Sequence record: MK817115.1
Reading direction: 5' to 3' (one strand)
Origin: Escherichia phage vB_EcoM_phAPEC6
DNA: 64,000 nucleotides
How positions within the stretch are numbered: the stretch's first letter is position 1; every line of letters starts with the position of its first letter. The position numbers and the translations under genes were made by a program. Below the pieces are notes generated by a model that was not told where the DNA came from, did not search any database, and saw nothing but the letters and a program-made list of their open reading frames with translations. This document shows, one piece after another, positions 8,985 to 16,194 of the stretch.

Positions 8985-9500
8985 TCATTTTTTTTCCGGT
9001 TTAACTGGAAATGAAAATGTTTTCTTGATCATGTCTGCTGGTTTGATTGAATTCAATTGCGTTACATAATCTTTCAATTTTACAAACAATACAGCTTCTT
9101 CATCAGTTGCTAACTCAAGATCCATAGCAGTTTTTAAGTGTCCAAGTTCTTGAATTGCAATGTATTTCAAATTAGATAATTCATTTTTTAGGCGTTCAAT
9201 TTTTTCTTCTTTAGTTTCAATATAGTCATGAATAGTATTTCCATCGTAAACCATACCATAAAGTTTGTTAATATCACCATCATATTCAATTTCAGAAACA
9301 CTAAAACCTAAAGGTACTAGATCATAAATGTTATATGATGCTGAAACAATTAAACCGTTAATATCATACATAAATTTTGCTTTATTAATGTCAAACAATT
9401 CACGAGATTCATACCAATCCATACCTTCATCGGACATCATATACAAAGAATTAGGATTACCACCTTCTTTTTCATACATCTTAAAATTTGTTAGTTGCAT
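8985..9500 (-). CDS. Possible tail-fibre assembly/chaperone protein
   Basis: Directly downstream of a tail-fibre gene; start ATG 9498-9500 with AGGAA RBS that overlaps the fibre stop. Call is positional only. Confidence 0.3.
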   Translation of the reverse strand: MQLTNFKMYEKEGGNPNSLYMMSDEGMDWYESRELFDINKAKFMYDINGLIVSASYNIYDLVPLGFSVSEIEYDGDINKLYGMVYDGNTIHDYIETKEEKIERLKNELSNLKYIAIQELGHLKTAMDLELATDEEAVLFVKLKDYVTQLNSIKPADMIKKTFSFPVKPEKK

Positions 9501-9510
9501 TACACATTCC

Positions 9511-11121
9511 TTATTGTTGACGTACTGTTTCCCAGTTACCATTTATTTGCATTTGAACATAGCGATAACTAATTCGTTCTAAGTGAGTGCCTGAACTACC
9601 ATTAACAGAAATCCATACGCCATCCATAAATGCACCTTCTGGTGTATATGTCCATGAAGAATCAGGTATTTTACTTGTTTCAATACGTGCACTCAAACGA
9701 ATACTTTGTACGTTATTAGTACTAATTTGCAAAGTAACGTTGCCACTAGCATCAGCAGCAGTACCGTTAATTGAACGAACAATATTTTTACCACCAACAG
9801 TAGCTGAGTTGTTAGAAACAGTTAATGATGGAGCAGCTAAAGTACCAGAAGAGTTTACAGTAACTTCTGCTCCACCGGAACGTAATCTCAATGTATTATT
9901 TGAAGAGTTATGATACACTGCCGCACGCTCACCACCGCTTGCGTTACGGAAATATAGAACTAATGATGTATCATTTGACTTAATTGACGCACTGTTTGCA
10001 ATAGTCAATGAACCAGTCATTGTATCACCAGTTTTTAGTACATAACGAGTGTTTGCAACTTTTTCACTCAATGCGACGTTAGATTCAGCAATGTTATATA
10101 GATATGCAACGTTAAAGTGTTCCACATCAATGTTACTAATACCATGATAGTGTGGTTGGTTTCCACCAAGTGTGTTAGTGTTTCCACTAAATGAGTGAAT
10201 GTGGTCTGGTGCTTCGTTAATGTTATTGATTACAGTTGGTATACCGTTATCATTACTTGAAGTTAACGCATTTAGACCACTACGGTCCATACCTTTTAGT
10301 GCTTGACTATGACCATGACGACCAGCAGCCCCTGTGGTCCCACTAAAACTAAATGAGTGTGATGGTAATTGGGCAACACTTAATACTGTGCCGCTAATAT
10401 TACCGCTACTACCAATAACACTATCAGTTTTAGTTACACCTGATGTGGATATCCCTTTTAAGTACGCGTTTTGGTTAAGGTTTGGTACTTGTTTGGTAAT
10501 TGTACCATTTTCCCCCTCCCATTGCCACCACATACCATCAGCAAAACACCAACCGTCAGACGTTTTCCACGGAGCACCTTGTGAACCGTTTCTCCCACTT
10601 TGTCCATTCGATTGTCCTGACATTTGTTCACGTATACTAGCAACAGATTGACCAGAAGTCAATGAATATTGTGTAATAGCACCTGGTTTAAGTGAAGTGT
10701 AAAGACCAGTTGGACCAGAACCACCACTAGAAGCAGTAGGGAATACAATGTTTAAGTTTGTTCCACTAATACTTGCACTAGGAACAGTACTACTACTGTA
10801 TGTTACACTTTCTACTTTTAAATTTAATTTTCTGTTTACTTCATCTAATGAAATTCTAATTGGTTCCAAAATAGTATCAGTATCGTATACTGCAATCCAA
10901 CTTGTACCGTTATGATACTTCAAAACTAATTCGTTTCGATCAAAAACCATTGCACCTTGTTCACCAGTAGGTAACGTTTGTACTGGTATAATAACTGATG
11001 ACGAATTAAAACGAATAGGTCTTGGGTTAGTTGGTGTACCACCAAGCACTATTAGTTCTAAAGATCCATTAGCACCAGTACTGGTCATTGTATCCAATGG
11101 GTTATTAAAACTTATGCTCAT
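9511..11121 (-). CDS. Tail fibre protein
   Basis: Ser/Thr/Asn/Gly-rich; KTGDTMTGSLTI motif, recalled as typical of phage fibres; AAAGGGA RBS. Confidence 0.55.
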   Translation of the reverse strand: MSISFNNPLDTMTSTGANGSLELIVLGGTPTNPRPIRFNSSSVIIPVQTLPTGEQGAMVFDRNELVLKYHNGTSWIAVYDTDTILEPIRISLDEVNRKLNLKVESVTYSSSTVPSASISGTNLNIVFPTASSGGSGPTGLYTSLKPGAITQYSLTSGQSVASIREQMSGQSNGQSGRNGSQGAPWKTSDGWCFADGMWWQWEGENGTITKQVPNLNQNAYLKGISTSGVTKTDSVIGSSGNISGTVLSVAQLPSHSFSFSGTTGAAGRHGHSQALKGMDRSGLNALTSSNDNGIPTVINNINEAPDHIHSFSGNTNTLGGNQPHYHGISNIDVEHFNVAYLYNIAESNVALSEKVANTRYVLKTGDTMTGSLTIANSASIKSNDTSLVLYFRNASGGERAAVYHNSSNNTLRLRSGGAEVTVNSSGTLAAPSLTVSNNSATVGGKNIVRSINGTAADASGNVTLQISTNNVQSIRLSARIETSKIPDSSWTYTPEGAFMDGVWISVNGSSGTHLERISYRYVQMQINGNWETVRQQ

Positions 11122-11161: not shown

Positions 11162-11488
11162 CTATAGCAAGTCGTTATCCATATCATCCCACACAGAATC
11201 AATGATGTTTGCTGCTATCTTTTTAGACATTTTAAACCACTCCGTGTTTGGTTGTCTAGTTGCATTCATTTGTTTAAGCCTTTTATGTATCTCTTTTTCA
11301 GCTAAACGTGCGTCTTCAAAGTGAACTTCATGATAAACTTCAAAATCACGAAACGGGGTAGCTGTCTGATACGTTCTCAAACGCTCTGTCATTTCAGATT
11401 TAGAAGTGAAACCAATCTTAACATAGTCAGGCCATGCAGAGTTTATTATAACATAACATATCTGTGACATAGATTCAATCTCCATCAT
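11162..11488 (-). CDS. T5orf172-domain (GIY-YIG superfamily) protein, free-standing
   Basis: CYVIINSAWPDYVKIGFTSK ... ERLRTYQ ... EVYHE matches the T5orf172 pattern as recalled; start uncertain (11488 or 11470). Confidence 0.5.
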   Translation of the reverse strand: MMEIESMSQICYVIINSAWPDYVKIGFTSKSEMTERLRTYQTATPFRDFEVYHEVHFEDARLAEKEIHKRLKQMNATRQPNTEWFKMSKKIAANIIDSVWDDMDNDLL

Positions 11489-11509
11489 TAATATGGAGAT
11501 ATTTATCTA

Positions 11510-11860
11510 TCAACTAATAGTGAATTTTAAACCAATATCAATTAAACGTTGAAAAGGATTATGTGGCTGAAATTCCGATGGTTCTTGTGCAATGTTTAGC
11601 ACAGGAGCATCAGAATGCAGCACCGACATACGTTCTCTATAATGATCGATGTATTCTTCATACAACATATCTTCAGTATGTGTATTAAGTATATCTTCTA
11701 TGAAAGAATCTAAACTATAATCCAATCTATCATCATTATAATACAATGTTTCAGTGGCTTCATCATATCCAACTAACGTACCATAAGGAACATTTATTTC
11801 TATATTTGAGTACTGACTCTTTAAGTACTCTTCTCTATTAAATTTGTATACAGTTAACAT
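11510..11860 (-). CDS. Hypothetical protein
   Basis: ORF-track start at 11869 is TTG; ATG 11858-11860 has AAGGAG RBS 10 nt upstream. Confidence 0.4.
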   Translation of the reverse strand: MLTVYKFNREEYLKSQYSNIEINVPYGTLVGYDEATETLYYNDDRLDYSLDSFIEDILNTHTEDMLYEEYIDHYRERMSVLHSDAPVLNIAQEPSEFQPHNPFQRLIDIGLKFTIS

Positions 11861-11883
11861 CCGTGTCAACTCCTTTAGATTGT

Positions 11884-12981
11884 TTACTTAAAGTTATTTA
11901 CAATTTTCAGTACAGATTTTAGATACTTTTCATCAAACGTTTCAGTAAATCCTGACGGCAACTCTTCAGTACTTACTACTCCACTTTCAATGTATTTCTT
12001 TATGAACTTTTCCAACAATAATGGTTGATTGCCATCCTCAAAGTAACGTTCTACCAGTACTTCATGCTCGAACTCAGAATTGCGGCTTTGTTCATTGACA
12101 CGGCGTTTCATATCACCTGTAATTCCATATTTGTACACCGTCTTATCATTATTAGTTAATTTTTGAACATAGAAATATCCAGGTTTTGATGGTTGATATC
12201 CATATTCCCCACATGATGGACATCCTTTACCAGCCATATGTGCTTTTGGTTGTTGGGAGAAGACACCATGAGTCGGACATACAATATCAATATAATTCTC
12301 GCTTAAAGTATATTCAACCAAGCTATAATCATACTTATGGTTATGGATAGGCGACACAAGTTCAATGAAACGTTCAGTGCTTCTTCCACCTTTACCAGAA
12401 CATGTACCGCAGCCAGTTTTACCCTTCAATAAAGTTTGGGCTGAAACAGTCCATTCGTGTTTACCGCGTGTACAGTATACGGTAACTTCCGTCTTATTGT
12501 TAACATATTTGGTATTTGGAAATTCAAACGCATTGCCATAGTTTTCTTTTACTTTTGCGATGAATGATTCAGTACTGTATGCTTCATTTTTATTACATAC
12601 AGGACAGCCCTTACCAGAAAGAAATTTGTTTGGTGTAATTTCAAAGTAATCGTTATGTTCTTCATCAGTGCAGAATAGTGTTACTTTTGATATAGCGTTA
12701 GTGTAATTTAGTTTATCAAATTTGAATTTATCTTTACCAAATTTAGTTTCTACAGTACTGATGAATGTGTCGTTGTTTGAACGCTGTGACATGTTTGAAT
12801 AACATGATGCACATGTACATGCAATGTGACGAAGTGCAGGTTTGGTGTTTTCTTTCCCACACTTGTTACATTTTACTGTTGTTTTACTTGCCTTGAATAC
12901 TAAAGTACTGAAGTCAAATTCTCCATACTTAGCAGTCATTTGGTTGATAAACTCGTCTTTGTTGATACTTACGTTTGGCAT
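11884..12981 (-). CDS. Four tandem Cys/His zinc-binding repeats plus C-terminal GIY-YIG-like module (putative homing-endonuclease-like)
   Basis: Four ~50-aa repeats each opening F-I and ending G-C-x-x-C (GCPVCN, GCGTCSG, GCPSCG) with a C...H...CxxC pattern; C-terminus GYFYVQ...YKYGITGD...RR resembles GIY-(x10)-YIG-R. Confidence 0.45.
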   Translation of the reverse strand: MPNVSINKDEFINQMTAKYGEFDFSTLVFKASKTTVKCNKCGKENTKPALRHIACTCASCYSNMSQRSNNDTFISTVETKFGKDKFKFDKLNYTNAISKVTLFCTDEEHNDYFEITPNKFLSGKGCPVCNKNEAYSTESFIAKVKENYGNAFEFPNTKYVNNKTEVTVYCTRGKHEWTVSAQTLLKGKTGCGTCSGKGGRSTERFIELVSPIHNHKYDYSLVEYTLSENYIDIVCPTHGVFSQQPKAHMAGKGCPSCGEYGYQPSKPGYFYVQKLTNNDKTVYKYGITGDMKRRVNEQSRNSEFEHEVLVERYFEDGNQPLLLEKFIKKYIESGVVSTEELPSGFTETFDEKYLKSVLKIVNNFK

Positions 12982-13051
12982 AATTCTGTCTCTATGTTTG
13001 TGTGTATGTGCGTATTATACATAACCAAAAACATCATGTCAATGTTTTTAA

Positions 13052-13086
13052 TAAAAAAAGGGACTCCGAAGAGTCCCTATTGTTTT
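13052..13086. terminator. Intrinsic terminator (gggactc-cgaa-gagtccc with T-runs on both strands)
   Basis: 7-bp stem, 4-nt loop; immediately downstream of the capsid gene on the minus strand. Confidence 0.65.
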
Positions 13087-13121
13087 TAATTTCTTGATTA
13101 AATCTTTTAAATCGATTACAA

Positions 13122-14297
13122 TTACATGAAAGTAACGTTTTTGATAGCGATTTTGCTGTAGTAGTCAGCAGCGTTACCAAGAGATGAAGTACTGTCGGTC
13201 AACTGTACATAGCCATATCTGGTTAGAAAAGTTGTAACGAGTTCCCCAGTGTTAGGGTCCATTACAGTACCAGAAGCCATTAGTGGGATGTATGGGCAAT
13301 AGAATACACCAGCATCAGTTTCCGCATTACCTTTATAACCAATTAGAATATCTTCTGCATCACTAGCATAGGTATCAACGAAAATACGCATAGTGCTGTT
13401 TAGAGTACCTACAAACTTAACGTTAGTTGGTGCTTCGAAAGTACCTTCAGTGGTACGTGCAAAGCTAGAAGTAGTAGCAGATTGTAGAATGGTTAGTGCA
13501 GTTGGGGAAACAACAGCCCAGTTTGCAGCACCACGCTTAGTACGACGAGCAACTTCGTTTGCTTGACGGTTAATTAGAGTTGCTAGAGCAGCGTGCTCAT
13601 CACCAACGAAGGTTGCAACACCAGTAACTTTAGATTGGTCATAAGTTACAGCAGCAGCACCAGGTAGTGCACGTAGACGGCTTAGTAGCTCTTGGTCGAT
13701 TTCTACAGTAACTTCTTGAGCGATTGCAGCCATTAGTTCTGCTTCAACGTCAACACCATGTTGGGATTGAGCATCTTGTGCAGATTCAACAGTCCAACGT
13801 GCAGATAGACGACGAGATTTCGCTTCAACAGTTTCACGTAGAATACGGATGTTAACGCGACGACCCATAGTACCTTCTAGTTGGCTAGTAGGAGCAGCTT
13901 GTGGGTTGCTATTATCCGCATTTAGATCACCAGAGTAAGATTTAGCGATTTTGTATGGAGAAAGCATTTCTTCACCAGCGATTACACCAGGTGCGTTATC
14001 AGCATATTGTACACGTAGGGTGTGGATCTGACCAACTGGACCAGTCATAGGTTGAACACCGATGATTTCGTTAGCAATAACGGTTGGCATTACACGACGC
14101 ATAATTGGTAGAATCACTTTGTTTAGAGTAGCGATGTTACCAGCGGTAGTTGCACCAGAAGTTGCGGATTCAGTTAGCATAACTTTACGATGGTTATCAA
14201 GAACAGTTTCCATTACAGACTTACGAGTACCCTGTAGACCTTCAACTAGTTTCTCTTTTACTGCTACCCATTTGGATTCATTTAGTAGTTGTGACAT
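13122..14297 (-). CDS. Major capsid protein
   Basis: T4 head-gene order (portal, gp67-like, gp68-like, protease, scaffold, this gene); exact TATAAATA box and AAGGAG RBS; strongest codon bias in window; own terminator. Confidence 0.7.
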   Translation of the reverse strand: MSQLLNESKWVAVKEKLVEGLQGTRKSVMETVLDNHRKVMLTESATSGATTAGNIATLNKVILPIMRRVMPTVIANEIIGVQPMTGPVGQIHTLRVQYADNAPGVIAGEEMLSPYKIAKSYSGDLNADNSNPQAAPTSQLEGTMGRRVNIRILRETVEAKSRRLSARWTVESAQDAQSQHGVDVEAELMAAIAQEVTVEIDQELLSRLRALPGAAAVTYDQSKVTGVATFVGDEHAALATLINRQANEVARRTKRGAANWAVVSPTALTILQSATTSSFARTTEGTFEAPTNVKFVGTLNSTMRIFVDTYASDAEDILIGYKGNAETDAGVFYCPYIPLMASGTVMDPNTGELVTTFLTRYGYVQLTDSTSSLGNAADYYSKIAIKNVTFM

Positions 14298-14342
14298 TAT
14301 ATATCTCCTTAAAGATGTTATATTCGTTTTTCAGTATGATAT

Positions 14343-14350
14343 TATTTATA
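14343..14350 (-). promoter_or_regulatory. T4-type late promoter TATAAATA for capsid gene
   Basis: Exact box ~45 nt upstream of ATG; the 16-mer AGTATGATATTATTTA around it recurs at 17110-17125. Confidence 0.6.
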
Positions 14351-14388
14351 GAACTGAAAAATTTGATTATTAAAATGCTTTAAAATGT

Positions 14389-15504
14389 TTATTTTTTATT
14401 GATACCTGAAAGAACATCGAGTTCTTTTAGGAATGCCATATCGTCAGCGGTCATTTCTTCGCTTTCAACAATAGCCTGACGGTTGCCAGTGATTACTTTA
14501 CCTTCTGCAAGAGTTTTCTTAGCGGAAGACTGAACTGCTTGACGAGTGGTAGCAGATTCATTTACTTTAGTACCGTTAAGTACTGACTTATGGTACTTGC
14601 TGAAATCTTCTTTAAGCTTTTCAGTAGGTGAAGTAGCTAGAAGGGATTCCATAATTTGTTTTTGCTGTGCCGTTAGTGGTTTTACTAGTTCAGACATAAT
14701 CGCATTACGTGCTTGTGCATCTTCCATAATACGTAGTTTGGTTTTAGCAGCTTTAACGGCATTAGCAGTTTCATGTAGTTCTTGCTTAACTTGAGCAATT
14801 TCATCTTCTTTAGATTTAATTGATTCAGTTAGGGAACGTAGCAATGAGTTTTCATTAAATTGTTTGACATTAAACTCTTGAGCAAATGCTTCAAAGATTT
14901 TACGACCAAACATATTTTGTTTTGCTTCCACTAGATCTTGTTTCAACGCATATAGATTCTTCTGAGTGGTTTCTGCAATATATTTAGCAGCACTTTCAGA
15001 TGTACGTTTGATGAAGTTATTACGAGCTTCAGCAATTTGACGTGAACCTTCAGCAAGTAGTTTAACGCGAGTTTCTACTAGTTGGCGTTTTTCAGTGTGG
15101 AATTCTTTTAGCTCTTCTGCTAGGATACCGTTAGAAAAATTAACGAATTTACCCATGCATTCATGAAGATGCTTACGTTCTTTACGCATTTGTTTAACTT
15201 CTTCAGCCAAAACAGAGTTTGAAAACGCAGAGAAATTGCTTAGTGTTTTACGTAGAGTTACACGATCTTCAACGAGACGTTTTTTCTCTTCATATACAGC
15301 ACCCATTTCTTCAGCAATGACTTGAGTAACCATAGTGTTCAAACCTTCGGTTAGTTCAGCCAAATCTTGCTGATAACGGCCTTTCATTTCTTCACGCATC
15401 TCTGCGGCTAGTGTATTCTTTTCTTCATTCCATGCTTCCTGAATTAGCTGTTTTGCCTCATCAGAAAGAGATGATTCTTTTAGAAGCTTTTCTAATTTAG
15501 ACAT
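14389..15504 (-). CDS. Prohead scaffolding protein
   Basis: Ala/Glu/Lys/Gln-rich, coiled-coil-like; between protease and capsid genes; AAAGGAGAG RBS. Confidence 0.6.
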   Translation of the reverse strand: MSKLEKLLKESSLSDEAKQLIQEAWNEEKNTLAAEMREEMKGRYQQDLAELTEGLNTMVTQVIAEEMGAVYEEKKRLVEDRVTLRKTLSNFSAFSNSVLAEEVKQMRKERKHLHECMGKFVNFSNGILAEELKEFHTEKRQLVETRVKLLAEGSRQIAEARNNFIKRTSESAAKYIAETTQKNLYALKQDLVEAKQNMFGRKIFEAFAQEFNVKQFNENSLLRSLTESIKSKEDEIAQVKQELHETANAVKAAKTKLRIMEDAQARNAIMSELVKPLTAQQKQIMESLLATSPTEKLKEDFSKYHKSVLNGTKVNESATTRQAVQSSAKKTLAEGKVITGNRQAIVESEEMTADDMAFLKELDVLSGINKK

Positions 15505-15551
15505 TCGTTCTCTCCTTTAAGTACTGAAATATCTGTACTTCAACATACAGA

Positions 15552-15559
15552 TATTTATA
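15552..15559 (-). promoter_or_regulatory. T4-type late promoter TATAAATA for scaffold gene, overlapping a 9-bp inverted repeat
   Basis: Exact box; inverted repeat atatctgta / tacagatat at 15529-15554. Confidence 0.5.
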
Positions 15560-15570
15560 TTTTTAAAATG

Positions 15571-16194
15571 TTAACCTTTTAATTTCTTGAAAAAATCGTA
15601 TATTTCAGAATCTAAATTATTTACTTTTTTAGATTCAGTGATTTTTTTAGAACTATTACAAGGTGATCCGTACTTACTCATCAGAGATTCAAATACCGCT
15701 GTTGGGTATGCTTCTGGAGCACTAGGTTGAGCAACAATATCAATAGTGATAATTTCAAAATCAGAAACTATTCCATTATAATCAACGTTACCGGAACCGC
15801 GAGAACTTACACCAAGTTTTACACCAGCCTCTAGCATTTTACGGATATTCTGACCATGTGCAGTATCAAGTAGTTTGATTTCTGCCATACCATTAGCACC
15901 TTCCATCCAAACCTTAGTAATCATTGCTGCTACACGGTCTAGGTTAATAGTTAGTGTTTCTGGATGGTCACATTCAACAAGAATGCTTTCACCTTTAGCT
16001 AAACGCTGGTTCATGTTATTTACTGCCCTTGTAATTTCAGATAAAGGGTAAATTCTCTCGTTCAAATTTCGTTGGTCGGCTTGAATAGCAATACCACGAA
16101 GATAGCAGTCACGCCCACCAAATCCATTATCACGATGTTCCAAAACAACTTTAGAATCATTGAATGAAGACCATTCACGAATCATACTACTCAT
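15571..16194 (-). CDS. Prohead protease (gp21-like by position)
   Basis: Sits between acidic core protein and scaffold as in T4; AAGGAG RBS; no catalytic motif confirmed. Confidence 0.5.
   Translation of the reverse strand: MSSMIREWSSFNDSKVVLEHRDNGFGGRDCYLRGIAIQADQRNLNERIYPLSEITRAVNNMNQRLAKGESILVECDHPETLTINLDRVAAMITKVWMEGANGMAEIKLLDTAHGQNIRKMLEAGVKLGVSSRGSGNVDYNGIVSDFEIITIDIVAQPSAPEAYPTAVFESLMSKYGSPCNSSKKITESKKVNNLDSEIYDFFKKLKG

Follow-up and report, generated by a model that had tools for sequence, protein, structure and literature searches.

This locus raises the question of whether the genes lying between the tail-fibre genes and the capsid gene form a single island of inserted nucleases, selfish or defence-related, as the first-pass annotation had proposed, or whether only some of them behave as mobile elements. 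The window analyzed here is the whole 64-kb stretch of DNA (64,000 nucleotides). It belongs to the lineage of the 121Q/PBECO4-like jumbo phages of E. coli (Asteriusvirus, Rak2-like), and its sequence is a 100% match to phage SP27, by whose name it is called below.

Gene layout and the variable cassette

Three genes were found at the locus, all on the minus strand. The two nuclease-like genes described earlier, a small T5orf172-type gene (ORF A) and a gene for a 365-aa protein (ORF C), are both real and correctly placed, whereas a third gene located between them, ORF B, had been overlooked. The description of both nuclease-like genes as neighbours of the capsid gene holds for ORF C, which alone adjoins it, but not for ORF A, which abuts the tail-fibre gene. 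The capsid gene, ORF B, ORF A, and the tail-fibre gene follow one another in a fixed order across several genera. ORF A can also be read from a start further upstream (11162-11488, 108 aa), although the start at ATG 11470 is more likely. The features of the locus are the following:

11162-11470, minus strand: ORF A, 102 aa from ATG 11470, a stand-alone T5orf172 domain
11510-11860, minus strand: ORF B, 116 aa, acidic, a conserved backbone gene
11861-13049, minus strand: variable cassette of 1,189 bp, made up of a promoter, ORF C, and a ribosome-binding site that replaces the one of ORF B
11884-12981, minus strand: ORF C, 365 aa, a predicted free-standing T5orf172 homing endonuclease gene
13014-13042, minus strand: putative sigma-70 promoter, TTGACA-17-TATAAT, a perfect consensus within the cassette
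13059-13078, minus strand: intrinsic terminator hairpin of the capsid gene, the right-hand border of the insertion slot
13125-13400, minus strand: last 92 codons of the capsid gene, with clustered silent differences, a putative co-conversion or exchange tract

Comparison with related phages by blastn and MAFFT put both junctions of the cassette at precise positions, one being the ORF B start codon (ATG, 11860) and the other the T-run that belongs to the capsid terminator (13050). SP27, 121Q, and vB_Ec-M-J carry the cassette. PBECO4 has 46 bp in its place, the site of fEgEco12 is likewise empty, and a contiguous empty site was observed in 8 records. All relatives keep the terminator hairpin, those with an empty slot as well as those with an occupied one. 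The earlier suggestion that the 365-aa gene was inserted beside the capsid gene is supported by its absence, with sharp boundaries, from close relatives, and ORF C shows variable presence next to an essential gene.

The slot, located directly downstream of the capsid gene, holds alternative occupants in other records. T5orf172 genes encoding proteins of 304, 306, 307, 332, 365, and 406 aa with differing finger sets were found in the same slot; the allele of slurp01 has three fingers. In RaK2 it carries a 408-aa zinc-finger 'endonuclease' that gave no T5orf172 match in Pfam and is 34% identical to ORF C over residues 57-361, and in UE-S1 it carries an unrelated 552-aa DUF7487/MTES_1575-like gene. 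All 365-aa ORF C alleles checked were intact. The annotations of 'split' homing endonuclease genes in WPEC3 and JP4 were traced to tiny over-called ORFs, and the genes themselves are intact.

The putative promoter lies upstream of ORF C, with 32 nt between the end of its -10 hexamer and the ATG, and no other sequence in the 64-kb window matches the sigma-70 consensus perfectly (0.05 perfect matches expected). Related promoters also precede the other homing endonuclease alleles of the slot, namely TTTACA-17-TATAAT in 121Q and, in vB_Ec-M-J, a promoter identical to that of SP27.

Domain architecture of ORF C

ORF C combines four tandem Cys/His zinc-finger repeats with a C-terminal nuclease domain. 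An HMM built from repeat 4 recovered all four repeats, with the iE values given below:

12784-12960, minus strand: zinc-finger repeat 1, residues 8-66, CxxC...CxxC, iE 0.095 (weakest)
12580-12774, minus strand: zinc-finger repeat 2, residues 70-134, C..H...GCxxC, iE 2.3e-13
12385-12576, minus strand: zinc-finger repeat 3, residues 136-199, iE 1e-10
12199-12381, minus strand: zinc-finger repeat 4, residues 201-261, iE 4.6e-32, weak DUF723 match
11887-12198, minus strand: T5orf172/GIY-YIG-fold nuclease domain, residues 262-365, with conserved Y271, K284, G286, R294, E324, and E347

The number of repeats agrees with the initial description, but their period is 62-66 aa rather than ~50 aa, and the GCxxC ending attributed to all of them is present in three of the four, repeat 1 ending in TCxxC. 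The predicted zinc ligands of repeats 1 to 4 are C38/C41/C57/C60, C104/H109/C126/C129, C170/H175/C191/C194, and C235/H238/C254/C257, respectively. In Pfam searches, ORF C scored 18.2 bits against DUF723 (cutoff 20.9) and 20.0 bits against DUF4379 (cutoff 24.5), and nearly all of its homologues carry precomputed PF05265 and PF14311 assignments. The CapR family of Pfam gave no match in ORF C; matches to it are present in the slot alleles of Turkey5 and RaK2. Elsewhere in the 64-kb window, neither ORF C nor its fingers had a detectable paralogue, and tblastn found one copy of ORF C in the whole SP27 genome.

The C-terminal GYFY...YKYGIT...RR module, noted at the outset for its resemblance to GIY-YIG, is best read as a T5orf172 domain of the GIY-YIG clan. 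ORF C scored 18.7-19.1 bits (E 0.002) against Pfam T5orf172 (PF10544), just under the curated cutoff of 20; slot alleles of relatives clear this cutoff (26 bits for SHEFM2K). ORF C also matches PHROG 681 'endonuclease' (E 1.9e-76). The search with full-length ORF C yielded 962 homologues, from which 26 diverse domains homologous to that of ORF C were aligned, 20 of them with a T5orf172 match at E<=0.01. The residues G286, R294, E324, and E347 occur in all 26 domains, and Y271 and K284 in nearly all of them. Loss of the catalytic Arg or Glu had been named beforehand as grounds for abandoning the nuclease assignment; both residues are conserved, so that this check does not speak against the assignment. 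The nuclease domain is also the best-conserved part of ORF C, with 2 nonsynonymous differences per 249 sites compared to 121Q.

A Foldseek search of the PDB with the AF2 model of full-length ORF C (pTM 0.35) gave nothing above noise (best E 0.018, TM 0.13), since ORF C is built as a chain of small domains; the C-terminal domain was therefore modelled by itself. This model has the GIY-YIG fold, and E324 is predicted on the helix after strand 3, which by the order of secondary-structure elements would be the position of E75 in I-TevI and of E180 in the origin-directed nuclease Odn. Sequence-profile searches of the PDB with whole ORF C and with its C-terminal domain found no relative, no NCBIfam match was obtained for ORF A, ORF B, or ORF C, and the Pfam GIY-YIG family (PF01541) gave no match in ORF C and was reached by only 2 of the 26 related domains.

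The state of the nuclease domain bears on the possibility that ORF C is a CapR-like DNA-binding regulator of the capsid operon with a vestigial nuclease domain. Its fingers belong to the CapR/DUF723/DUF4379 class (PMC10448857), and the gene lies directly beside the capsid gene, which speaks for such a role. However, CapR itself has no nuclease domain, whereas that of ORF C is intact, with invariant catalytic residues, and is better conserved than the rest of the protein. Moreover, relatives devoid of ORF C express the same capsid gene, and the CapR family was not matched by ORF C in Pfam. We consider a regulatory role of this kind highly improbable.

The T5orf172 homing endonuclease genes (HEGs), including those with a C-terminal nuclease, have been described previously (Barth, Dunham & Seed 2023; PMC10448857). 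Most of them contain zinc-finger domains, among which are tandem CapR/DUF723/DUF4397 (sic) fingers; 31% are found in capsid-gene neighbourhoods, and they are variably present and located at genetic-exchange boundaries (PMC10448857). According to the same account, homing by the T5orf172 HEGs of ICP1 is without experimental verification. ORF C shares with T5orf172 HEGs the zinc-finger DNA-binding domain at the terminus opposite to the nuclease. The domain order, reported earlier as the reverse of the classical one, is indeed reversed with respect to I-TevI; it is not an anomaly, being known in T5orf172 enzymes, and the same C-terminal domain is present in 54 of the best 120 ORF C homologues.

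Among the known systems, ORF C resembles the HEGs of the ICP1 gp165/gp174 type in its repeated finger array with T5orf172 at the other terminus, as well as in its capsid-adjacent position, variable presence, finger shuffling between alleles, and location at an exchange boundary. It is 33% identical to an ICP1 'putative homing endonuclease' over residues 212-364. It differs from this type by its host (an E. coli Rak2-like jumbo phage), its four fingers, and its Pfam scores just under the cutoffs, and its single copy per genome contrasts with the HEG expansions in ICP1 and T5-like phages. Phages 121Q, PBECO4, SP27, and RaK2 are not among the supplementary-table entries of PMC10448857. With I-TevI and the T4 Seg enzymes ORF C shares a modular 'beads on a string' organization, an own promoter, a free-standing position between conserved phage genes, and co-conversion-like tracts in the flanks. 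Unlike them, it has a C-terminal nuclease, K-[YI]-G instead of Y-I-G as the second motif, a four-finger array instead of a zinc finger with a helix-turn-helix, and no PF01541 match. Based on these comparisons, we concluded that ORF C is of a type already described, a zinc-finger array joined to a T5orf172/GIY-YIG nuclease, and is a clear but ordinary example of it rather than a new system.

Recombination at the slot and proposed homing of ORF C

Alleles of ORF C and the surrounding genes have diverged to very different extents. Between SP27 and 121Q, the flanks are 100% identical and the dS of ORF C is 0.42; between SP27 and vB_Ec-M-J, ORF C has a dS of 0.15 and ORF A and ORF B have a dS of 1.0-1.5. 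The allele tree of ORF C is discordant with the flanking genes. Finger 3 exists in two allelic forms that are swapped between phages, the SP27 form matching that of vB_Ec-M-J, and compared to 121Q it carries 27 nonsynonymous positions per 152 sites, against 2-6 in the other fingers. In the capsid gene, 14 of the 16 synonymous differences between SP27 and 121Q fall within the last 92 codons (binomial P 1e-7), a clustering of silent differences that is similar in comparisons with PBECO4, slurp01, SHEFM2K, and E9.1. Capsid nucleotide diversity is 0.08-0.11 in these codons versus 0-0.03 in the rest of the gene.

A mosaic pattern of this kind could be produced by ordinary hot-spot recombination without endonuclease-driven gene conversion. 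Taken together, however, the own-promoter cassette, its exact absence from some relatives, the varied occupants of the slot, the discordant tree, and the pile-up of silent changes are marks of a free-standing homing endonuclease. From these sequence data, ORF C is very likely a T5orf172-family (GIY-YIG clan) homing endonuclease gene of the free-standing kind, and its slot, bordered by the capsid-gene terminator and ORF B, a hot spot of recombination.

The proposed mechanism of homing is as follows. Since the cassette brings its own promoter, expression of ORF C can be independent of the capsid transcript, and the host polymerase would transcribe it from the sigma-70 promoter, presumably with its own timing. 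The four treble-clef-type zinc fingers of the CapR/DUF723/DUF4379 class, strung like beads, would read a long DNA target, by analogy with CapR and with other members of the family, and the C-terminal T5orf172 domain would cut nearby by means of the conserved Arg294 and Glu324. During a mixed infection, the cut would be made in a genome with an empty or differently filled slot, most likely at the capsid 3' end, the terminator, or the start of ORF B; a search for the cleavage target of ORF C from sequence alone found none. Repair from the ORF C-bearing genome would then copy the cassette together with flanking markers. Cutting and repair of this kind are suggested by the pattern of presence and absence, the discordance between alleles and flanks, and the silent tract at the capsid 3' end.

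The family also offers a precedent for a nuclease gene that benefits its phage, and ORF C might likewise be domesticated, acting against competing phages or a satellite, rather than purely selfish. In Odn (ICP1 Gp88), the DNA-binding domain is at the N-terminus and the T5orf172 domain at the C-terminus, and its cleavage of DNA in vitro depends on E180 (PMC8263062); among the systems compared here, this is the one biochemical proof of cutting by a T5orf172 domain. ORF C has the same order of domains and retains the catalytic Arg and Glu. Its dN/dS of 0.10-0.23, the intactness of all alleles checked, the lack of decayed copies among those sampled, and its own strong promoter are in agreement with a function useful to the phage. 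However, ORF C is dispensable, being absent from at least 7 close relatives, and nucleases of different kinds substitute for one another in its slot. The RepA_N domain of Odn was copied from a satellite, and Odn serves as an anti-satellite weapon, whereas the fingers of ORF C are a generic HEG array and do not derive from the replication protein of a satellite; ORF C has no known satellite target, and its population signature is that of a homing element. In addition, cutting competitors at the same locus would mechanistically amount to homing. We therefore regard domestication of ORF C as unlikely.

As a homing endonuclease gene, ORF C would make this locus a clean natural hot spot beside the capsid gene of jumbo coliphages that are therapeutic candidates, with one slot that is empty in some phages and holds at least six different finger/nuclease combinations in others, a swapped finger cassette, and a co-conversion-like tract reaching into the capsid gene. 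The view that nuclease genes mark the boundaries of genetic exchange, drawn from ICP1 and T5-like phages, would thereby extend to Rak2-like jumbo phages, and near-identical pairs (SP27 or 121Q versus PBECO4) would be convenient for testing T5orf172 homing.

ORF A and ORF B

ORF A matches Pfam T5orf172 well above the cutoff (E 3.7e-13, 50.3 bits; cutoff 20) and has no DNA-binding domain. It belongs to the T5orf172 subfamily, in contrast to small stand-alone GIY-YIG proteins such as T4 endonuclease II and the bacterial UPF0213/EF2693 family. Its orthologues across genera are all 100-108 aa long and 63-93% identical, with invariant Y6, K18, G20, R30, E58, E60, and E77. ORF B (PHROG 15724; pI 4.4; no Cys) had no match in Pfam, NCBIfam, or PADLOC; it was found in 70 phage records across Rak2-like genera, and its cluster representatives number only 16 among 1.84 billion proteins. 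ORF B was also considered as a DNA-binding half that ORF A has lost, an idea that was rejected, as ORF B lacks Cys and is strongly acidic, and RaK2 has ORF B without ORF A.

In every Asteriusvirus relative examined, with the slot empty or filled, both genes occupy the same place, and they are syntenic in Erwinia Eneladusvirus and Klebsiella phage Kae01 as well. Strong purifying selection acts on them, with a dN/dS of 0.03-0.04 for ORF A and 0.02-0.11 for ORF B. Being conserved in all these relatives and in several genera, ORF A is not of the variable-presence type, and the claim that the small T5orf172 gene is inserted or selfish was not supported. Universal conservation, which had been proposed as evidence against insertion, therefore describes ORF A and ORF B; it does not describe ORF C, which is missing from close relatives. 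Judged by sequence comparison, the two genes lie outside the mobile element and belong to the ancestral gene set of Rak2-like jumbo phages, in which selection has maintained them.

The grouping of ORF A, ORF B, and ORF C into one mobile or defence island was suggested by the occurrence of two T5orf172-domain genes within 1.8 kb and by PADLOC matches of ORF A to PDC-S57 (E 2.7e-17) and PD-Lambda-1. These matches are at the domain level, limited to the nuclease portion of proteins that are far longer (positions 3-93 of 212 and 359-438 of 496, respectively), and ORF C gave no full-length match in PADLOC-DB, with only a chance-level hit to Cas12u4 (E 0.0076). The boundaries of the indel enclose ORF C alone, and neither the synteny nor the dN/dS of the other two genes is that of an inserted element. 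A common island is thus extremely improbable, and of the selfish or defence-related roles initially envisaged, the former appears to apply to ORF C only and the latter was not upheld.

A T5orf172 domain without a targeting domain next to a HEG hot spot might also represent a decaying, functionless homing-endonuclease remnant that has lost its DNA-binding domain. Decaying HEGs, however, show frameshifts and variable presence (PMC10448857), whereas ORF A has a low dN/dS, invariant predicted catalytic residues, and a uniform length across genera, which makes a remnant distinctly unlikely. From its sequence, ORF A, which has no targeting domain, is probably active as a nuclease. The invariant catalytic set and the fixed position would also suit a core nuclease that Rak2-like jumbo phages have domesticated, a reading that we consider possible but rather doubtful. 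If it is true, ORF A might degrade host DNA in the manner of T4 EndoII or, alternatively, might be controlled by the acidic ORF B acting as an inhibitor or DNA mimic; an ancient homing-endonuclease module would then have become an essential phage function, next to a slot that still recruits new homing endonucleases.

Gene order beside the capsid gene

The 6.6 kb around ORF A, ORF B, and ORF C were 100% identical to Escherichia phage SP27 and 96-99% identical to 121Q, PBECO4, slurp01, and further Asteriusvirus jumbo phages, members of the Rak2-like group. Every gene in this neighborhood lies on the minus strand, and the transcription order is prohead protease, scaffold, capsid, ORF C, ORF B, ORF A, tail fiber, and fiber assembly:

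13122-14297, minus: gp23-like major capsid gene, after the prohead protease and scaffold genes
11884-12981, minus: ORF C, 365 aa
11510-11860, minus: ORF B, 116 aa
11162-11470/11488, minus: ORF A, 102/108 aa
9511-11121, minus: tail fiber; a tail-fiber assembly protein is next, with DNA polymerase further on

The first-pass annotation described two genes beside the capsid gene, both of which are real, but did not mention ORF B between them. The fiber module (tail-fiber and assembly genes, 9000-11100) appears from its identity pattern to have been swapped as a block between sub-lineages: vB_Ec-M-J and fEgEco12 are only 53-88% identical there compared to 90-99% in the head genes. Over the same interval, 121Q, PBECO4, and slurp01 are 93-100% identical (mostly 99-100%).

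The insertion slot and probable transfer of its occupants

The alignment with PBECO4 is interrupted precisely between the ORF B ATG (11860) on one side and the terminator T-run of the capsid gene (13050) on the other, and PBECO4 has 46 bp in place of the 1,189-bp segment 11861-13049. The slot is also empty in fEgEco12 (a contiguous empty site was found in 8 records overall) and in Erwinia Eneladusvirus. Elsewhere it holds varied occupants:

307-aa three-finger allele (slurp01, G17, Sharanji, and others), sharing with SP27 no more than finger 4 and the nuclease domain
332-, 306-, and 406-aa alleles with differing finger types (CapR, DUF723, DUF4379)
304-aa allele (Klebsiella phage Kae01)
408-aa zinc-finger "endonuclease" (RaK2), 34% identical to ORF C residues 57-361; T5orf172 was not found in it by Pfam search
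unrelated 552-aa gene (UE-S1, locus L005, 3379-5037), with DUF7487 and a weak match to MTES_1575 (restriction-endonuclease-like)

The UE-S1 gene suggests that the slot is contested by another nuclease type; judged from its coverage pattern, ph0011 also carries a gene of this type. The exact empty sites and varied occupants bear out the earlier proposal of an inserted nuclease for ORF C; ORF A and ORF B are not part of the insertion.

The right-hand junction of every occupant lies exactly at the capsid-gene terminator (13059-13078, stem GGGACTC...GAGTCCC), which has equivalent sites across loci L001-L012 of related phages. Conservation extends to Klebsiella phage Kae01 and phage Turkey5, with an insertion in the stem (GGGACTCTTGACGAGTCCC and GGGACTCGCTTGACGAGTCCC).

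Between SP27 and 121Q, identity is 100% over 9000 to ~11250 and over ~13400 to 15600, but falls to 77-95% in the stretch between. SP27 and vB_Ec-M-J have an almost identical ORF C (0-4 mismatches per 50 bp across 12050-13150), whereas the flanks are only 62-90% identical. The dS values are similarly discordant: between SP27 and 121Q, dS is 0.42 in ORF C against 0.056 in the capsid gene; between SP27 and vB_Ec-M-J, it is 0.15 in ORF C, whereas ORF A and ORF B reach 1.0-1.5. Two forms of finger 3 differ at 26-27 nonsynonymous positions per 152 sites, compared to 0-6 for the remaining fingers, and finger 3 is a swapped cassette, as described for T5orf172 homing endonucleases. Silent differences from 121Q in the capsid gene are concentrated in the last 92 codons, adjoining the slot (14 of 16; binomial P ~1e-7), where nucleotide diversity is 0.08-0.11 versus 0-0.03 over the remaining gene. 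Together, the identity drop, dS discordance, finger-3 swap, and silent-change cluster point to cassette transfer between genomes. Repeated gene conversion centered on the slot would be expected to leave these footprints, but ordinary hot-spot recombination may have produced the same pattern.

ORF C as a putative homing endonuclease

A profile built from repeat 4 of the homologues recovered all four tandem zinc-finger repeats of ORF C (iE 0.095, 2e-13, 1e-10, and 5e-32), which align as F-I-x...(Y/F)G...C-x(2-4)-(C/H)...(G/T)CxxC. The count of four Cys/His repeats given previously therefore stands, but their period is 62-66 rather than ~50 aa and repeat 1 terminates in TCxxC. The GYFY, YKYGIT, and RR motifs, correctly noted as a C-terminal module, all fall within the last 104 residues. 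The Pfam T5orf172 score of ORF C (18.7-19.1 bits) is slightly below the cutoff of 20, while 20 of 26 homologous C-terminal domains match this family. ORF C also matches PHROG 681 "endonuclease" (E 1.9e-76); across finger 4 and the nuclease domain, its identity to an ICP1 "putative homing endonuclease" is 33%. The ORF C family extends to 933 phage records (tblastn), and RefSeq already labels its relatives "endonuclease."

The cassette carries a predicted promoter, TTGACA-17-TATAAT, on the coding strand (13042-13014), 32 nt upstream of the ORF C ATG; this perfect sigma-70 consensus is the sole instance in the 64-kb window (0.05 expected). Other slot alleles are likewise preceded by related promoters, and the cassette provides a replacement Shine-Dalgarno sequence for ORF B. 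With dN/dS of 0.10-0.23 and all checked 365-aa alleles intact, ORF C is a working rather than decaying gene.

Among T5orf172 homing endonucleases, 87% have CapR/DUF723/DUF4397 (sic) zinc-finger domains, many with several; nuclease and DNA-binding domains lie at opposite termini, presence varies by isolate, fingers recombine, 31% occur in capsid-gene neighborhoods, and the genes mark the edges of exchanged segments (Barth, Dunham & Seed 2023, PMC10448857). ORF C matches every one of these traits. Its domain order is indeed reversed relative to I-TevI, as first noted, but is not novel: the C-terminal nuclease is a known T5orf172 arrangement, as in Odn, and 54 of the best 120 ORF C homologues have the same C-terminal domain. 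These comparisons identify ORF C as a probable free-standing T5orf172 homing endonuclease at a capsid-adjacent hot spot, with predicted nuclease activity, target site, and homing. This kind of element is already known, and the Asteriusvirus ORF C is a further case, not found in the tables of PMC10448857. For the Rak2-like phage CBB, the homing endonucleases given in the paper on it are HNH-type and intein-associated LAGLIDADG only.

The backbone genes ORF A and ORF B

The genes ORF A and ORF B belong to the backbone; their conservation in relatives, named beforehand as evidence against mobility, removes them from the proposed mobile island. ORF A is of T5orf172 type, as initially recognized (Pfam E 3.7e-13; MUG113 also matched). 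Its orthologues are all 100-108 aa, with 63-93% identity, dN/dS of 0.03-0.04, and invariant Y6, K18, G20, R30, E58, E60, and E77, including all predicted catalytic residues. ORF A is a conserved nuclease-domain gene lacking a targeting domain. Such conservation is unusual, T5orf172 in this analysis coming mainly from mobile endonucleases. The position and length of this domain without a DNA-binding domain are fixed across several Rak2-like jumbo phage genera.

In the PADLOC search, ORF A (11162-11488) matched the T5orf172 portion of candidate defense proteins PDC-S57 (E 2.7e-17) and PD-Lambda-1 (E 6e-5), but the search gave no evidence of a defense system at ORF A/B/C and no support for the defense-related role suggested earlier. 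The T5orf172 nuclease module serves both sides of the phage-host conflict.

ORF B has homologues in 70 phage records, from jumbo phages of Escherichia, Klebsiella, Salmonella, Erwinia, Yersinia, Serratia, Cronobacter, Pectobacterium, and Xanthomonas; at the examined loci, the gene lies just 3' of the capsid gene or of the endonuclease inserted there. The family is tiny (16 representatives among 1.84 billion proteins), with nothing found in Pfam, NCBIfam, or PADLOC. The protein is strongly acidic (pI 4.4, 22 D+E versus 8 K+R) and has no Cys. In the Kae01 annotation, neighboring structural proteins carry a mass spectrometry flag, compared to none of the three ORF A/B/C homologues.

ORF A follows ORF B in Asteriusvirus, Kae01-like phages, and Eneladusvirus, but not in RaK2, where the 244-aa ORF097 (L008, 3923-4657), without a match in the Pfam search, occupies the ORF A position; the ORF B-ORF A pairing is therefore not universal in the wider group. 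A GGAG 8 nt upstream of ATG 11470 and the 121Q RefSeq annotation favor the 102-aa start of ORF A. A 23-nt hairpin (11478-11500, ATCTCCAT...ATGGAGAT) separates ORF B and ORF A; the more upstream ATG codons, those of the 108-aa version, overlap with it.
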